Source of the DNA: a virus | Reading direction: 5' to 3' (one strand) | IMG/VR virus record: IMGVR_UViG_3300037184_000101 | Location: 1-32,064 of that record | DNA length: 32,064 nucleotides | In this document: positions 18,101-31,960 of the stretch, piece by piece | Numbering within the stretch: the stretch's first letter is position 1 | Layout: each line of letters opens with the position of its first letter | Translations under genes and position numbers: made by a program | The notes under the pieces: model-generated | The model's database searches: none | Told to the model about the DNA's origin: nothing | Seen by the model: only the letters and a program-made list of their open reading frames with translations

Positions 18101-18264
18101 AACTTTTTTATTGGCTTACTCAGCCATTCGAGAAACCTTCGATAACATTCACCACACAAATGATACTTGATGACGGTGCCATTCAAGTCTCGTGGTGGAG
18201 AGAATACCAGACCACCGGGCATTGTCAACTCCTTTCCACACTTTACACAGATAACGCAAATCAT
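18097..18264 (-). CDS. small zinc-ribbon protein, probably on a leaderless mRNA
   Basis: 55 codons MICVICVKCGKEL...HLCGECYRRF. ATGA overlaps with both neighbouring genes. The ATG lies about 7 nt downstream of a perfect TATAAT. Confidence 0.4.
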   Translation of the reverse strand: MICVICVKCGKELTMPGGLVFSPPRDLNGTVIKYHLCGECYRRFLEWLSKPIKKL

Positions 18265-19067
18265 GGTGCCATTATAACAGGACTTCGCATTTTGTCAATA
18301 GATGTTTTGATGTCATCTACGCCGCCATAGAAGATTTTAACCTTATGTGTATCCATTACATATTTCAATTTCGGTAAATCCCGTTGTAGGTAATAATCGT
18401 TTTTGGGGTCGAGATAAACATCGAAGTCGGGTAGGTAGAAGTCGGGGAAGTATTTTCTCTCATCACCGTTCGCATCAATCCACCTGAACATATGACGTTT
18501 TTTGCTTCTGTCCCACTTTATTCTTTCGGCATCCATCCACTTCGCCAACTCGACTTCCCAACGGGAATCCATTTTATATCCCCGATATGGAAACCGTCTA
18601 TACCCAAGTTTTCCACCACAGTTGGGGTTGTTGCGAGACCATTGGCTAACAAGTTTTCCGTAGCATTCATCACTACAAGTTTTCTTAATCTCGGCATTGC
18701 TTTTTACGAGATGAAAAAATTTCTTATCGCATACTACACAAACGAACTCCTTCTGCCTCGGAAATGTTCTTGGTCTCTGGACTGATTGCTTATGGACGAG
18801 TGGATTGGTTTTAGATTGAGCATATTTTACTGCACAATCTACACTACAACATTTTCTCGCCTTTTTATGTGTCGTTGTCTCAAAATCATTTTTACACCAC
18901 AAGCATTTAGACATCACTTTTTCATGAGATGTATGATTAGATGATTGAGAGCAAATGCGGGAGCAATAGAAATAATCACGCCCATTACGGGCTTGACGAT
19001 TGTATTCCTTTAGAGGAAGTGAAAACGGAGTTTCACATTTATGACAGATTATTGATGTCATATTCAT
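18261..19067 (-). CDS. putative homing endonuclease: three YCSxxC zinc-ribbon modules plus a PD-(D/E)xK-like nuclease domain
   Basis: CHKC...YFYCSRICS, CLWC...KCCSVDCAVKY and CVVC...TCSDECYGK repeats. C-terminal YFPDFYLPDFDVYLDPK resembles PD..(D/E)xK. C-terminal half similar to the 26362 ORF. Confidence 0.45.
   Translation of the reverse strand: MNMTSIICHKCETPFSLPLKEYNRQARNGRDYFYCSRICSQSSNHTSHEKVMSKCLWCKNDFETTTHKKARKCCSVDCAVKYAQSKTNPLVHKQSVQRPRTFPRQKEFVCVVCDKKFFHLVKSNAEIKKTCSDECYGKLVSQWSRNNPNCGGKLGYRRFPYRGYKMDSRWEVELAKWMDAERIKWDRSKKRHMFRWIDANGDERKYFPDFYLPDFDVYLDPKNDYYLQRDLPKLKYVMDTHKVKIFYGGVDDIKTSIDKMRSPVIMAP
18271..18298 (-). promoter_or_regulatory. consensus sigma70 promoter TTGACA-N16-TATAAT (leaderless start)
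   Basis: Minus strand: TTGACAaaatgcgaagtcctgtTATAATggcaccATG. Located within the 3' end of the upstream endonuclease gene. Confidence 0.55.
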
Positions 19068-19118
19068 ACATCAATAAATAGTGGAGATAATGGGAAAAGC
19101 ATCAAAAACTTTACAGAA

Positions 19119-19192
19119 TGGTGGAGCTAAAGGGAGTCGAACCCTTATTTCCGGTTTGCGGAACCGATGTCCTGCCGTTGAACGACAGCCCC
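19119..19192 (-). tRNA. tRNA-Ala-like (anticodon CGC, C33 instead of U33); paralogue of tRNA-Ala(GGC)
   Basis: GGGGCTG/TAGCTCC with G3:U70. D-stem GTTC/GGAC. Anticodon stem TCGGT/ACCGG with loop TCCGCAA. T-arm AAGGG-TTCGACT-CCCTT. CCA encoded. About 80% identical to the gene at 15387-15460. Confidence 0.6.
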
Positions 19193-19765
19193 AAGATTGA
19201 CGAAGGCTGGTGCGCTATAACGAAGCGTTCTCCGTACTGTTAAATTGGTGAGATGGGTAGTGATAGAACACAATTCCATGGGCGTCACCTTCGCAGCCGA
19301 TACGGCAGTTTGCACGTAGCGGCACCCATCTCATATTTTTGTCGTTCGCACCCATGAGCGTATAGCCCATGTTTTAGCCGCCGTTCTGGTCTATCTCTAC
19401 ATTTTTCTCAGTCTTGCGACTGGTCCCCCTTTACGGGGAACTGCTCCAACCTTCCCGTTACCACGGCCAGCACTAGCCTTTGGGACTTTAGGATTGCTGC
19501 TAATTTGTGGTGTTAACGAATAGTTGAACACTGATTTACATTCGTTCTTATGGTGGAATGCGTTTAGTTTTCTCCGAACCTTGCGGCTCGTTAGGCTCAG
19601 TTGCAACATTTACATCAACTATTCTCCCAAACATCTGCTGTGCAGCGGCGAACTTCCTCTAATATTGAATGATGGAACCCAAGGCCATATACCATCGTTA
19701 GGCACGAAAGGGACTTCAATACCAGCGTAGAGTCGCTTACGACAAAATTCAAAGAACCGTTACTA

Positions 19766-20035
19766 TCATGCCCCTACTGTAGCAGGTTTCTTGCTGTCTG
19801 TCAAGGGCGACTTTTCAGCAAACCTTTGCGCCACATTCATGCCCCCGGCGGCAACCAAAATAGTTACAACCGATTCGGGGATTGGAGGAAAGACATATAT
19901 CCCGTGAACAACTGAAATGATTGATGCTGCTGTCCATACAGCGAAAACTCCAATGCCCCACACGAGCGAAAGAATACGAATAGATGATAACTTTCCCGAA
20001 GGGTCTTCAACGGCACTTGACAGTCTGAATTGCAT
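19766..20035 (-). CDS. small membrane protein
   Basis: 89 aa with two hydrophobic helices. Confidence 0.45.
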   Translation of the reverse strand: MQFRLSSAVEDPSGKLSSIRILSLVWGIGVFAVWTAASIISVVHGIYVFPPIPESVVTILVAAGGMNVAQRFAEKSPLTDSKKPATVGA

Positions 20036-20039
20036 AAAT

Positions 20040-20126
20040 TGGTGCTGGTGGGGAGAATCGAACTCCCACGTCCATTACAGACGGTAGGCTCTCAACCTAC
20101 TACGGCTACCGTTACGTCACACCAGC
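20040..20126 (-). tRNA. tRNA-Leu(GAG), type II
   Basis: GCTGGTG/CACCAGC-A-CCA. Anticodon stem GTAGG/CCTAC, loop TTGAGAG. Variable arm CGTC..GACG. T-arm GGGAG-TTCGATT-CTCCC. Confidence 0.8.
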
Positions 20127-20151
20127 AATATGGATATAAATATCTTCGACT

Positions 20152-30761: not shown

Positions 30762-30941
30762 ATTTTTCATATCAGTCAATGTGGCATAACAACTTATTAT
30801 ATCCGCATTTGTTGTTCCACATAAAACGGTGCTCGGTACGTCAGGTCACTCGGAGTCGAGCAGCCCTTCATCGCTTGAAGGCAAGCGTCCCGCATACGAA
30901 ATCGGTATCCCTATCCGTCCTCACTGATACCGAGCATAAAT
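30762..30941 (-). ncRNA. candidate structured spacer RNA between tRNA(TAG) and tRNA-Leu(CAG) (termini base-pair)
   Basis: 30770-30776 (tatcagt) is complementary to 30923-30929 (actgata). Internal hairpins GCTCG..CGAGC and CCTTCA-tcgct-TGAAGG. Non-coding. Confidence 0.3.
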
Positions 30942-31025
30942 TGGTGCTGGTGGGGAGAGTCGAACTCCCACGTCTTTCGACGATTGATTCTGAATCAATT
31001 GCGGCTACCGTTACGCCACACCAGC
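30942..31025 (-). tRNA. tRNA-Leu(CAG), type II
   Basis: GCTGGTG/CACCAGC-A-CCA. Anticodon stem ATTGA/TCAAT, loop TTCAGAA. Variable arm CGTC..GACG. T-arm GGGAG-TTCGACT-CTCCC. Paralogue of the Leu(GAG) gene. Confidence 0.8.
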
Positions 31026-31026
31026 G

Positions 31027-31102
31027 TCTCCCAGAGTGGATTTGAACCACCATTATTCTTGGCCCCGGACCAAGTGCCATAACCAAGTTAGGCGACTGAG
31101 AG
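31027..31102 (-). tRNA. tRNA-Pro(CGG)-like with C33; no encoded CCA
   Basis: Acceptor CTCTCAG/CTGGGAG-A. Anticodon stem CTTGG/CCAAG, loop TCCGGGG (G37). T-arm GGTGG-TTCAAAT-CCACT. Its 3' end is 1 nt from the tRNA-Leu(CAG) 5' end. Confidence 0.55.
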
Positions 31103-31303
31103 AATCGAGATACCGTTTTTGGTTTCCTATAATGGAATTTTTTGGTTGCTGCTGGTATCTCAAATTGAATCATATGGGCGACAAGGCATTCGTAAGCACT
31201 AACCGCTGCCCCAGTATCGTAACGGTCACACCGTATAATAACATTCTCCGGTCATCCTTTCGGACTCCTGCCGAGTGCGTACAATCTACGGCCCATACAA
31301 ATT

Positions 31304-31717
31304 CTACCACGCATAATCAGATACCATTCTTATGCGTTTGCGCTGATTATTTTTCGGAGGCTGATACCTCAAATTGATTGACTTTTTTTGATGAAATACC
31401 TTCGGACCCAACCACACAAGTTGTTGTGCTGATGGAATATATGCGATAATTGCATCTACTTCCATTTTGGAGTATATTTTTGTATGTCCATTATTCCACG
31501 TCTGCTTGCGAAAATCAACATGAACAGACCCATCGGCGGATGTTGATTGAGCATCTACATATTTGGTCTGAACCCGAAAACATTTTCCGTCTTCATCAAC
31601 AAGGATTGCATCATATCTACGTTCGACCGTGGGAAAACAGACATCCCAGTTCTTTTCAAGTGCTCGTTCTTGCATTTTAAGAACTGCTATTTGTCCTTTT
31701 TTATAAGTACTGTACAT
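31304..31717 (-). CDS. hypothetical protein, possible PD-(D/E)xK-like nuclease
   Basis: 137 aa with YDAILVDEDGKCFRVQTK (D...E/D...K spacing). Speculative. Confidence 0.35.
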   Translation of the reverse strand: MYSTYKKGQIAVLKMQERALEKNWDVCFPTVERRYDAILVDEDGKCFRVQTKYVDAQSTSADGSVHVDFRKQTWNNGHTKIYSKMEVDAIIAYIPSAQQLVWLGPKVFHQKKSINLRYQPPKNNQRKRIRMVSDYAW

Positions 31718-31721
31718 AAAA

Positions 31722-31797
31722 TGGTGGTCCGAGTGAGAATTGAACCCACAACCTTGACTTTAAGAGAGTCCTGCTCTGCCAATTGAGCTACCAGACC
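31722..31797 (-). tRNA. tRNA-Lys(CTT)
   Basis: Canonical 76-nt cloverleaf. GGTCTGG/TCGGACC-A-CCA. D-stem GCTC/GAGC. Anticodon loop CTCTTAA. T-arm GTGGG-TTCAATT-CTCAC. Confidence 0.75.
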
Positions 31798-31960
31798 GTT
31801 TTATTCTGACTATTTGACACATGCCGTAAATTGGACCCCACGCATCCAATTCAGCATGGTTTTTGGAACAGTAGCATCCCTCTACTGTTTTGCGTCTATA
31901 ACGCCGAATGCCCCACGCATTCTTGCCAACTTTCCCTCTACAGAACCAACACAGTTTCAT
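31760..31960 (-). pseudogene. fragment of a YCSxxC zinc-module gene (possible homing-endonuclease remnant)
   Basis: MKLCWFCRGK...GCYCSKNHAE matches the C-x2-C...YCSxxC module. The ORF runs into tRNA-Lys, so it is probably truncated or decayed. Confidence 0.25.

Follow-up and report, generated by a model that had tools for sequence, protein, structure and literature searches.

Putative homing endonuclease genes pairing a repeated zinc module with two nuclease types in a huge-phage tRNA array

It is already established that homing endonucleases reside in phage tRNA clusters and that modular binding domains are common to homing-endonuclease families. SegB, encoded in the tRNA cluster of phage T4, cuts tRNA genes at a conserved T-arm sequence and carries its tRNA gene neighbours with it (PMC2330249); tRNA genes can moreover be amplified through SegB (PMC13096335). 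F-TflI and F-TflII, together with F-TflIV, are located in the tRNA cluster of phage T5 (PMC2330249, PMC13096335).

Several other known systems bear on the genes described here. The NUMOD modules are nuclease-associated modular DNA-binding domains common to GIY-YIG, HNH and LAGLIDADG homing endonucleases, and YacG is a gyrase inhibitor with a single zinc finger. T7 endonuclease I, which resolves four-way junctions, consists of the nuclease domain alone and forms a domain-swapped dimer, and I-Ssp6803I resides in the intron of a tRNA gene. I-Ssp6803I (2ost) and I-Bth0305I (3r3p, EDxHD/Vsr-like) are restriction-fold nucleases used as homing endonucleases, the latter with its nuclease at the C-terminus, preceded by modular DNA-binding repeats at the N-terminus (PMC3239194).

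The window analysed here, the whole 32,064-nt stretch of viral record IMGVR_UViG_3300037184_000101, covers a huge-phage tRNA cluster (about 20 tRNAs in 17.5 kb) with putative homing endonucleases specialised on tRNA gene arrays. Three genes, ORFs A, B and C, are in our judgement likely to be free-standing homing-type endonuclease genes living in phage tRNA arrays. ORFs A and B are nucleases of the T7-endonuclease-I-type PD-(D/E)xK class and ORF C is an HNH_2 nuclease, so that two unrelated catalytic types share one repeated zinc module; no description of this combination of catalytic domain and zinc module was found in the literature. The relevant features are as follows.

17621-18100, minus strand: P-loop kinase, overlapping the 55-aa ORF by 4 nt
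18097-18264, minus strand: 55-aa zinc-ribbon ORF, overlapping ORF A by 4 nt
18261-19067, minus strand: ORF A (268 aa), three zinc modules (18951-19046, 18834-18905 and 18663-18740, by regular expression and HMM), then a T7-endonuclease-I-type PD-(D/E)xK domain
19119-19192, minus strand: tRNA-Ala(CGC), 51 nt upstream of ORF A
24626-24877, minus strand: ORF D (83 aa), one CxxC...FCSxxC motif (24722-24784)
24922-24997, minus strand: tRNA-Arg(CCU)-like gene (Rfam tRNA, 31.1 bits), 89 nt from the ORF C start
25087-25824, plus strand (array on the other strand): ORF C (245 aa), a pair of zinc modules (25153-25248 and 25276-25356), an additional CxxC...CxxC ribbon and, at about 25624-25767, the HNH_2 core
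25830-25909, minus strand: tRNA-Arg(UCU)-like gene (Rfam, 29.0 bits), D arm missing
26362-27195, plus strand (array on the other strand): ORF B (277 aa), two zinc modules (26386-26445 and 26590-26667), then a nuclease domain of T7-endonuclease-I type (about 26743-27057), with the third module (27094-27144) behind it
27174-27252, minus strand: tRNA-Glu(UUC), 79-nt allele, its 3' end antisense to the ORF B 3' end
31304-31717, minus strand: PDDEXK_5 (I-Ssp6803I-like) nuclease gene without zinc module
31722-31797: tRNA-Lys(CUU), with the PDDEXK_5 gene starting 4 nt after it
31760-31960, minus strand: ORF E, its 3' part a translated tRNA-Lys

The pattern C-x2-C-x(5-30)-x-C-S-x2-C has 10 matches in the six-frame translation of the window, against a mean of 0.065 and a maximum of 1 in 200 dinucleotide-preserving shuffles. 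Nine of them lie inside ORFs A, B, C and D, at the places given by the first-pass annotation, and the tenth (15742-15828, minus strand) falls in a Cys-rich low-complexity frame. An HMM trained on 289 modules from relatives, to which the window's own protein did not contribute, recovers three modules in ORF B (i-E 3e-11 to 1e-7), three in ORF A (i-E 2e-7, 3e-4 and 0.046) and two in ORF C (i-E 7e-7 and 0.03). The copy numbers first reported for these three genes thus hold by both methods, and the presence of one module on two catalytic types is upheld by profile score, beyond the regular expression. Among relatives, the number of copies per protein ranges from 0 to 5.

The module is a four-cysteine treble-clef zinc finger of FCS/YacG/TRASH type. 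Its C, C, C-S and C ligands are invariant in an alignment of 73 modules, it forms a beta-hairpin followed by a helix in the predicted models of ORFs B and C, and YacG is its PDB fold match in both models. When the 73 modules were scanned singly, 13 matched YacG, 11 DUF2116 and 7 zf-FCS, the top E-values among relatives being 1e-5 (zf-FCS) and 1.4e-4 (YacG); the window's own modules reach Pfam E-values of 1e-2 to 4e-4, none at the gathering score. The module profile also matches eL24 (3e-5) and the FCS finger of L3MBTL2. The YacG, zf-FCS (MYM), TRASH-eL24 and DUF2116 fingers share with the window modules the signature C-x2-C...[FY]-C-S-x2-C, but YacG is a single finger, whereas those of the window are tandem repeats fused to nucleases. 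A match to a well-known unrelated domain, combined with C-terminal regions devoid of nuclease fold predictions, had been named at first pass as a refutation; the class is indeed well known, yet a nucleic-acid-binding role is uncontradicted. The NUMOD modules follow the same principle, a small binding module in variable copy number joined to unrelated catalytic domains, but have a different fold from this four-Cys treble clef, and NUMOD1, NUMOD3 and NUMOD4 (Pfam) match no window protein at E<=1. NUMOD3 is present in one relative (P0088), and some relatives in BFVD combine NUMOD3 with the same nuclease domain.

The nuclease domain of ORF B aligns by phmmer to T7 endonuclease I (gp3; Phage_endo_I; PDB 1m0d and 2pfj) with an E-value of 2e-6 against 1m0d, across the core PDF...ExK. 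Its catalytic Glu, located upstream of this core, its PD and its ExK are in register with the solved 1m0d structure, and E141, D176, E186 and K188 are invariant or nearly so in 55 relatives. The AlphaFold model of ORF B (pLDDT 86.6) has T7 endonuclease I as its best PDB fold match and the catalytic domain of I-Bth0305I as the second best; the Foldseek probability against 2pfj is 0.97, with weak whole-model PDB E-values (1e-2). ORF B remains under the gathering score of Pfam Phage_endo_I, PF05367 (24.5 vs 29.1 bits), and ORF A does not match this family. Precomputed PF05367 matches exist for some relatives of ORF B. ORF A retains the catalytic residues (the E in SRWEVE, PDF and DPK), aligns with the ORF B family profile at an hhalign probability of 98.8%, matches endonuclease and resolvase PHROGs and has homologues in 2184 cluster representatives at E<=1e-3. 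Unlike T7 endonuclease I, the A/B family adds 1 to 5 zinc fingers that flank the domain and behaves as mobile genes. The use of a restriction-fold nuclease for homing, as in I-Ssp6803I and I-Bth0305I, may apply to A and B, but these carry no EDxHD motif, are not intron-encoded and have zinc fingers in place of NUMOD2/HTH; the I-Ssp6803I relative in the window is the PDDEXK_5 gene, not A or B.

ORF C belongs to Pfam HNH_2 (PF13391), with an E-value of 4.6e-8 and 33.2 bits where the cutoff is 21. Its family alignment has invariant C, H, N, H, E and D residues and a conserved CHI...N...LCPNHHWEFD pattern, and its model is predicted with a pLDDT of 93. The nuclease assignments of the first-pass annotation are therefore sustained by fold and family predictions, T7 endonuclease I-type for A and B and HNH_2 for C. 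Homologues of ORFs C and D begin at the positions corresponding to 25087 and 24877, in agreement with the proposed starts. The tRNA-Arg(CCU)-like gene lacks a D arm, has a long variable region, retains compensatory pairs and is conserved in the syntenic relative L176, and the tRNA-Arg(UCU)-like gene is convergent with ORF C, 5 nt separating their 3' ends.

The insertion sites are polymorphic among relatives. In four collinear loci (L176, L178, L179 and L183) the order of tRNAs and genes around the sites is preserved, but ORFs A, B and C and the PDDEXK_5 gene are absent. For example, the two tRNA-Arg-like genes of L176 are 48 nt apart, with no HNH gene between them, at the position of ORF C in the window. 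A counterpart of ORF C is present in L090. In L183 the tRNA-Glu leads directly into a 133-aa gene at the position of ORF B, and in L090 this position holds a one-module HNH gene divergent from the 133-aa gene. No PDDEXK_5 gene lies between tRNA-Lys and tRNA-Pro in L176, L178 and L179. ORF A is missing from L176 and the other three loci along with the 55-aa ORF and the P-loop kinase, which may thus be cargo of the same insertion.

The tRNA genes next to the nucleases also differ from those of the nuclease-free relatives. The overlap of ORF B with the antisense tRNA-Glu (27174-27195), reported at first pass, is real and measures 22 nt, the ORF B stop codon lying within the antisense T loop; two close homologues have such a convergent overlap too, one of 22 nt and one of 60 nt. 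This 79-nt tRNA-Glu shares 73-82% identity with the tRNA-Glu beside genes of the ORF B clade (L174, L185 and L187), but 57-71% with the 75-nt tRNA-Glu found in syntenic relatives that lack the nuclease. The tRNA-Ala(CGC) beside ORF A is 68% identical to the tRNA-Ala(cgc) of L176 and 84% to the tRNA-Ala(ggc) of the window. Judging by these identities, the tRNA-Glu is a foreign allele that goes with this nuclease clade, and the tRNA-Ala(CGC) differs as an allele from its positional counterpart in the nuclease-free relative. Moreover, the 133-aa gene has a replaced N-terminus, and this replacement and the foreign tRNA allele would be consistent with co-conversion of flanking markers. Since the genes are missing from the corresponding positions in relatives and carry their own tRNA copies, they behave like selfish homing endonucleases of tRNA arrays.

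Every module-bearing ORF had been said to sit beside or overlap a tRNA gene, and the adjacency is even denser than claimed, Rfam adding the two tRNA-Arg-like genes that flank ORF C. With tRNAs this dense, such adjacency within the window says little, and it is by comparing loci that one learns more. Of 58 distinct ORF B relatives in IMG/VR, 55 lie in same-strand tRNA arrays and 49 are no more than 150 nt from a tRNA. Upstream, the tRNA ends modally 55-67 nt before the ATG, Glu (13), Gly (8) and Asp (4) being the main types, and the stop codon is often overlapped by the downstream tRNA. In the HNH family, tRNAs are found within 3 kb at 57 of 66 distinct loci and within 100 nt at 41/66, and the convergent overlap onto tRNA-Arg(UCU) recurs. 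The controls for tRNA proximity consisted only of 82 kb from two huge phages plus the window's first 14 kb, none of which contains a tRNA. The module need not be what confers the niche, since HNH relatives without a recognisable module adjoin tRNAs as often (13/21) as those with one (28/45; Fisher p=1). Protein similarity follows the type of the upstream tRNA (0/2000 permutations), a link that could reflect descent of whole arrays instead of target specificity.

Some insertions have left visible traces. L016, L018 and L014 each have a distinct tRNA-Gly(GCC), 39-57 nt and the nuclease gene, followed by the orphan 3' end (33 nt) of another tRNA-Gly(GCC); L021 and L020 have the latter intact and with no gene inserted. 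The Gly(UCC)-Gln junction is empty in L016 and occupied in L014, L020 and L021, and further orphan T arms follow the nuclease stop codon in L064, L069 and L073. Among cultured phages, one relative interrupts the gene for the large terminase in Pseudomonas phage PspYZU05, and another is found in an Agtrevirus, 18 nt upstream of a tRNA.

The modular free-standing homing-endonuclease family proposed at first pass is thus supported by the nuclease folds and by absence from relatives, and we infer from sequence comparison that these proteins cleave DNA, bind it through the module and home. Like SegB (GIY-YIG) and F-TflI/II/IV (HNH), ORFs A-C lie among tRNA genes and are missing from related phages, and by analogy they would follow the logic of these enzymes as well as their niche. 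They differ in their catalytic domains, T7-endonuclease-I-type PD-(D/E)xK and HNH_2 with Cys-rich zinc sites, and in binding through FCS/YacG-like zinc fingers instead of NUMOD/HTH modules. Unlike SegB and F-Tfl, the window family also has a tightly linked, specific tRNA allele, and orphan tRNA 3' remnants mark its insertions. During co-infection, a genome without the nuclease gene would be cut by the enzyme in a tRNA gene or directly beside it, and repair would copy the nuclease gene together with the linked and presumably cut-resistant tRNA allele. The resident tRNA gene would thereby be replaced, its 3' part sometimes staying as a scar, and the zinc modules may supply extended nucleic-acid contacts, like the NUMOD modules of other homing endonucleases. 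Classical homing alone makes no duplicated target remnants, so that some insertions must involve illegitimate recombination. Co-directional members located between two tRNAs probably owe their expression to the transcript of the tRNA operon; ORFs B and C are on the opposite strand, convergent with the tRNA-Glu and a tRNA-Arg-like gene, respectively.

The nucleases could instead be domesticated, kept since their breaks amplify, replace and diversify phage tRNA genes, with a benefit in countering tRNA-targeting host defences and a persistence not due to selfish spread only. SegB sets a precedent by driving segmental tRNA-Tyr amplification that escapes Septu (PMC13096335), and the replacement tRNA alleles brought by the window genes, the unusual tRNA-Arg variants of the array and the very large size of a family almost confined to arrays would fit. 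We nevertheless regard domestication as rather unlikely, since close syntenic relatives keep the same tRNAs without the genes, the signature of a dispensable element, and no tRNA amplification is seen in the window. The mechanism being the same, it is compatible with free-standing homing endonucleases.

FCS and eL24/TRASH-type fingers include RNA binders. The profile matches to eL24 and the L3MBTL2 finger could point to RNA-directed nucleases that bind tRNA or pre-tRNA, processing array transcripts or cleaving host tRNAs that the phage then replaces; most family members are co-directional between tRNAs, as if part of a tRNA operon, and some PD-(D/E)xK enzymes cut RNA. This is highly improbable: T7-endonuclease-I-like and HNH_2 enzymes are both typical DNases, a processing enzyme would be expected to be single-copy and fixed whereas these genes are polymorphic and multi-copy, the relative that splits a terminase gene is far from any tRNA, and orphan tRNA gene remnants record events at the DNA level. 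Least probable of all are ordinary structure-specific resolvases with the function of T7 endonuclease I in replication and packaging, their tRNA neighbourhood being incidental. The likeness in sequence and fold and the PHROG label 'Holliday junction resolvase' would agree with such a role, but one array holds two diverged paralogues together with an HNH gene carrying these modules, relatives lack the genes, 55 of 58 ORF B relatives are in tRNA arrays, and tandem zinc fingers are foreign to resolvases.

The remaining ORFs reported to carry the module differ from A, B and C. ORF D has the cysteine pattern but no significant HMM match (i-E 1.4). It is found in every syntenic relative, its 8 homologues (61-85% identity) are all 76-86 aa long, and it is a fixed, conserved small zinc protein, neither nuclease nor mobile. 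In ORF E, CWFC...CYCSKNH departs from the motif and the HMM match is not significant either (i-E 27), so that the claimed module falls away. ORF E is probably not a real gene: it sits on a 166-nt insert specific to the window, no homologues were found, and its 3' part is a translation of tRNA-Lys. Finally, the PDDEXK_5 gene, which the first-pass annotation had not listed, matches its Pfam family with an E-value of 1.2e-20 (74.4 bits against a gathering score of 26.1) and PDB 2ost with an E-value of 0.006.

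The tRNA array of this huge phage harbors nucleases of two folds, both with intact active sites, that carry a common zinc module, a four-Cys finger. The genes concerned and two of their neighbors are as follows.

18261-19067, minus strand: ORF A, zinc modules and a PD-(D/E)xK domain of T7 endonuclease I type
26362-27195, plus strand: ORF B, zinc modules and a PD-(D/E)xK domain of the same type
25087-25824, plus strand: ORF C, zinc modules and an HNH_2 domain
24626-24877, minus strand: ORF D, small zinc protein
31760-31960, minus strand: ORF E, truncated ORF, doubtful as a gene
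31304-31717, minus strand: PDDEXK_5 nuclease gene
25915-26316, minus strand: gene for a 133-aa protein
27745-30297, minus strand: gene for an 850-aa protein

The window is a complete 32,064-bp JGI metagenome contig of huge-phage origin, and its 850-aa protein shares about 40% identity with proteins of the 735-kb LR756501 and 462-kb LR756500 "uncultured phage" genomes; a DNA search found no near-identical sequence among GenBank phages. ARAGORN predicts 18 tRNA genes, which are confined to the minus strand and span 14350 to 31797, and two further weak tRNA-like genes (25830-25909 and 24922-24997) were identified with Rfam.

A six-frame translation of the window contains ten matches to the pattern C-x2-C-x(5-30)-x-C-S-x2-C, where 200 dinucleotide-preserving shuffles predict 0.065. 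Nine lie exactly where the first-pass annotation had placed module copies: ORFs A and B contain three each, ORF C two and ORF D one, and the last of the three in ORF B comes after the nuclease domain. The tenth falls in a Cys-rich low-complexity frame. The copy also attributed to ORF E could not be upheld, as this ORF carries CWFC...CYCSKNH, which is not the motif (profile i-E-value 27). ORF E was likewise rejected as a decayed nuclease N-terminus, since it resembles none of 345 collected proteins. An HMM made from 289 modules of ORF B relatives, the window's own protein excluded, was run on all 596 stop-to-stop ORFs of the window and recovered three modules in ORF B (i-E-values 3e-11 to 1e-7), three in ORF A (2e-7, 3e-4 and 0.046) and two in the HNH protein ORF C (7e-7 and 0.03). 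The proposal of one module common to the PD-(D/E)xK and HNH catalytic types therefore holds for ORFs A, B and C beyond cysteine spacing. The HMM gives no support to ORF D (i-E-value 1.4), which has the cysteine pattern only. The module is a predicted treble-clef finger of the FCS/YacG/TRASH class: among 73 modules scanned singly, 13 match YacG, 11 DUF2116 and 7 zf-FCS (best E-value 1e-5), the module profile matches ribosomal eL24 and the L3MBTL2 FCS finger along its full length, and one HNH relative has a precomputed zf-FCS match. Matches of the profile to C2H2 zinc fingers span the first CxxC knuckle only and were disregarded. Among relatives, modules are found on either side of the nuclease domain and number 0 to 5 in the ORF B family and 0 to 2 in the HNH family.

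The nuclease folds were also borne out, with PD-(D/E)xK predicted in ORFs A and B and HNH in ORF C, active-site residues intact. ORF B aligns to T7 endonuclease I (PDB 1m0d; E-value 2e-6) across PDFxLPN..VExKG, and scores under the threshold of Pfam Phage_endo_I (24.5 versus 29.1 bits). In an alignment of 55 relatives, C136, S138, P175, D176 and K188 are strictly conserved, and E141 and E186 almost strictly. The top PDB matches of its AlphaFold model (pLDDT 86.6) are T7 endonuclease I (probability 0.97) and the catalytic domain of I-Bth0305I (0.95), the zinc module being matched by YacG. ORF A is, from profile comparison, a divergent member of the ORF B family (hhalign probability 98.8%, E-value 7e-17), with E...PD...DPK in register. 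A 184-aa ORF beside tRNA-Ala(GGC) (14813-15367) was rejected as a further member (hhalign probability 1.8%). ORF C lies above the Pfam HNH_2 threshold and conserves the core CHI...N..LCPNHHWEFD; Foldseek with its model (pLDDT 93) returned no useful nuclease match in the PDB, and YacG for the module only. A fourth nuclease, absent from the first-pass annotation, is encoded by the PDDEXK_5 gene (E-value 1e-20), related to I-Ssp6803I (2ost), and brings a third type of homing endonuclease to this array. Its gene starts 4 nt after tRNA-Lys(CUU), has no zinc module and is missing from the syntenic relatives L176, L178 and L179. None of these proteins is covered by an NCBIfam model.

The nuclease genes are present or absent at fixed positions of an otherwise conserved array. 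Close relatives of the 850-aa gene were not found in IMG/VR, its distant homologues in the 735-kb and 462-kb phages are useless for synteny because no tRNAs surround them, and a metagenome scan with this protein returned only two short, rearranged contigs. Syntenic relatives were reached via ORF D homologues and show 61-96% amino-acid identity in common genes (loci of relatives carry L-numbers, homologous proteins P-numbers and window genes g-numbers by position). The gene order of L176 is that of the window's minus strand minus several genes: tRNA-Lys, tRNA-Pro, tRNA-Leu, tRNA-Leu, g27514, tRNA-Glu, two tRNA-Arg-like elements, ORF D, tRNA-Val, several genes, then tRNA-Pro, g20152, tRNA-Leu, g19766, tRNA-Ala(CGC), g17101, cytidylyltransferase and tRNA-Ala(UGC). 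It lacks the PDDEXK_5 gene, the 850-aa gene, ORF B, the 133-aa gene, ORF C and the block of ORF A, a 55-aa ORF and a kinase gene. The two tRNA-Arg-like elements are 48 nt apart in L176, whereas in the window 832 nt holding ORF C separate them. L178 and L179 read tRNA-Glu, tRNA-Arg(UCU), tRNA-Arg(CCU), ORF D and tRNA-Gln, with neither ORF B nor ORF C. In L183, tRNA-Glu directly abuts the 133-aa gene at the site that ORF B occupies in the window, and the two sequences become homologous again from 13 codons inside that gene. L090 has, at the position of ORF B, a single-module HNH homologue that is convergent with tRNA-Arg(CCU) and divergent from the 133-aa gene. ORFs A, B and C are thus missing at fixed positions with array order kept. 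ORF D is found in every syntenic relative and is therefore a fixed small protein rather than a mobile nuclease.

Two neighbors vary as well. The 850-aa gene, without match in Pfam or NCBIfam, and a small ORF upstream of it (together 27745-30679, minus strand) are placed between tRNA-Leu(UAG) and g27514, a position that is empty in L176, L178 and L179; in L090 the 850-aa gene comes instead after the 133-aa gene, so a large gene conserved in huge phages itself varies in where, or whether, it occurs in the tRNA array. The 133-aa protein, which has no Pfam match, conserves Cys and His at positions (CGVIAVA ... GWHWVVV) that hint at a small papain-like peptidase. The first 13 codons of its gene differ from L183, where the gene overlaps tRNA-Glu, and its divergent neighbor on the opposite strand is ORF B in the window and the HNH gene in L090.

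Because tRNAs are so dense in the window, the adjacency of every module gene to a tRNA is uninformative there. The tRNA niche is nevertheless a property of the nuclease families and not of the window. The ORF B family has more than 500 matches, and the ORF A search gave 2184 cluster representatives (50% identity) at E≤1e-3. In a sample of 80 IMG/VR loci representing 58 distinct ORF B relatives, 55/58 lie in arrays with tRNAs on the gene's own strand and 49/58 have a tRNA within 150 nt, with 1.1 tRNAs per kb in the flanks. The distance from the end of the upstream tRNA (Glu 13, Gly 8, Asp 4) to the start codon has a mode of 55-67 nt, and the tRNA that follows the gene frequently overlaps its stop codon (offsets -38 to +11 nt). 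Protein similarity follows the upstream tRNA type (0/2000 permutations), for which shared descent of whole arrays is a possible cause. The HNH family behaves similarly over 66 distinct loci, with tRNAs within 3 kb in 57, within 100 nt in 41, and tRNA-Arg within 100 nt in 16; seven loci have the convergent tRNA-Arg(UCU) arrangement, as in the window, in L004 and, with tRNA-Arg(CCU), in L090. In several family members the C-terminal tail is a translated antisense T arm. HNH relatives with and without a recognizable module are equally tRNA-adjacent (Fisher p=1), so the module is unsupported as determinant of the niche.

Cultured phages also harbor relatives. Pseudomonas phage PspYZU05 (L092, NC_055720.1 89441-92275) encodes a 200-aa "endonuclease" related to ORF B, with one zinc module and the nuclease domain. 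Its gene lies between two ORFs both annotated as terminase large subunit and overlaps each by about 13 nt; this looks like a large terminase gene split by endonuclease insertion. An unannotated relative in an Agtrevirus lies 18 nt upstream of tRNA-Met, and BFVD holds many phage proteins of the same architecture, one annotated "putative homing endonuclease". L004 (ENA k141_124134, 63087-83827), which carries the ORF C homologue P0123, has LAGLIDADG, GIY-YIG, ART-PolyVal, Gad2-like and NAD synthase genes in the same 20 kb; its HNH gene is the sole plus-strand gene of the neighborhood and is convergent with an 88-nt tRNA-Arg(UCU).

Foreign tRNA alleles are linked to the nucleases, and tRNA remnants are present at some insertions. 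In L016, L018 and L014, the nuclease gene comes 39-57 nt after a tRNA-Gly(GCC) of one sequence type, and its stop codon lies at the junction with an orphan 3' piece of 33 nt (variable loop, T arm and acceptor strand) from a different tRNA-Gly(GCC). This second tRNA-Gly(GCC) is intact and nuclease-free at the homologous place in L021 and L020. The tRNA-Gly(UCC)/tRNA-Gln junction of L016 is empty (14 nt) and holds a paralogous nuclease gene in L014, L020 and L021. L064, L069 and L073 have additional orphan T arms after the stop codon. The 79-nt tRNA-Glu(UUC) beside ORF B shares 82% identity with the tRNA-Glu genes at the ORF B homologues P0005 (L174) and P0004 (L187), 73% with that at the homologue P0003 (L185), and only 57-71% with the 75-nt tRNA-Glu of syntenic nuclease-free relatives. 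The convergent ORF B/tRNA-Glu arrangement recurs in L185 (60-nt overlap) and L187 (22-nt overlap). The tRNA-Ala(CGC) beside ORF A is likewise unlike that of L176 (68% identity).

The earlier interpretation as modular homing endonucleases is supported at the level of sequence comparison. The nucleases would cut tRNA genes or their flanks in genomes without the nuclease gene, repair would then copy the nuclease gene together with its tRNA, and the zinc fingers may supply DNA contacts. More tentatively, and with some doubt, tRNA gene and nuclease gene could move as a unit that cuts resident tRNA genes and installs its own resistant allele, the module reading tRNA-gene DNA. If so, these enzymes would be a main force by which huge phages build up, replace and diversify their large tRNA arrays, which would provide a concrete, testable mechanism for array assembly and turnover and would add a novel family of modular nucleases whose natural targets are conserved. 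A domesticated role in array remodelling would employ the same mechanism and is compatible with homing. An RNA-directed nuclease activity and an ordinary resolvase both fit poorly with multi-copy, polymorphic genes and with scars at the DNA level.

Homing endonucleases in phage tRNA clusters are known from a few model phages, and T4 SegB and the T5 F-Tfl enzymes are the closest functional parallels. SegB lies in the T4 tRNA cluster, recognizes the T-arm sequence GGTTCRANTCC and takes tRNA genes along (PMC2330249); it can amplify tRNA genes and thereby evade the tRNA-cleaving Septu defence (PMC13096335). Cyanobacterial tRNA L-arrays are also accompanied by an HNH gene (PMC8421152). For T7-endonuclease-I-type or HNH_2 nucleases with a zinc module in tRNA arrays, our literature search found only the SegB, F-Tfl and L-array HNH precedents, and neither literature nor NCBIfam searches found a paper or curated family describing these module-nuclease proteins. 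The present genes suggest that tRNA arrays house a far larger set of such residents, none of which we found described in the literature. A small binding module common to several catalytic families follows the NUMOD principle, and N-terminal repeats with a C-terminal restriction-fold nuclease recall I-Bth0305I (PMC3239194). Unlike these known systems, the present families differ in the combination of catalytic domain and module, their scale and close confinement to tRNA arrays, their tight linkage to particular tRNA alleles, and the tRNA remnants.

The arrays have further features. Four tRNA-Arg-like genes, with anticodons CCU and UCU, reach the Rfam threshold and are missed by ARAGORN.

Window 24922-24997, minus strand: tRNA-Arg-like gene
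Window 25830-25909, minus strand: tRNA-Arg-like gene
L176 1843-1921: tRNA-Arg-like gene
L176 1970-2045: tRNA-Arg-like gene

They have no D arm, with only about 4 nt between acceptor and anticodon stems, a 17-21-nt variable region that contains a conserved GTAATTGGAA box, and an encoded CCA end. Compensatory changes in 13/19 predicted pairs across the four copies make them look functional; the UCU copy of the window has two U-U mismatches in the acceptor stem. L178 and L179 have ordinary 76-nt tRNA-Arg genes at these places.

The array also encodes (16649-18264 and 23074-23553, minus strand) a P-loop kinase with APS_kinase, Zeta_toxin and AAA_33 matches, and cytidylyltransferase-like and dual-specificity-phosphatase-like proteins; L176 has in addition a domain of the alanyl-tRNA-synthetase class (tRNA-synt_2c). 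As a group, these proteins could serve in the repair or maintenance of tRNAs. The kinase gene and the 55-aa zinc-ribbon ORF are coupled to ORF A via 4-nt overlaps and are missing from L176 together with it.

In the IMG/VR loci L010-L089, many tRNAs measure 84-94 nt although their types (Glu, Lys, Asn, Pro, Asp and Ile-UAU) usually have a length of about 75 nt, which suggests long variable arms or short insertions. Examples are:

L010 1271-1361: overlong tRNA
L019 4567-4652: overlong tRNA
L040 4544-4633: overlong tRNA
L013 6493-6586: overlong tRNA

Several of these arrays harbor CUA-anticodon tRNAs (called Pyl, i.e. amber suppressors) and tmRNA genes. Finally, an intergenic sequence of about 60 nt lies just upstream of tRNA-Glu:

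Window 27257-27317, minus strand: intergenic sequence
L091 1692-1751: intergenic sequence
L178 1803-1867: intergenic sequence
L183 2931-2984: intergenic sequence

It is 85-89% conserved among relatives, directly follows tRNA-Leu(UAG) in L091, and may act as promoter or processing element for the array.
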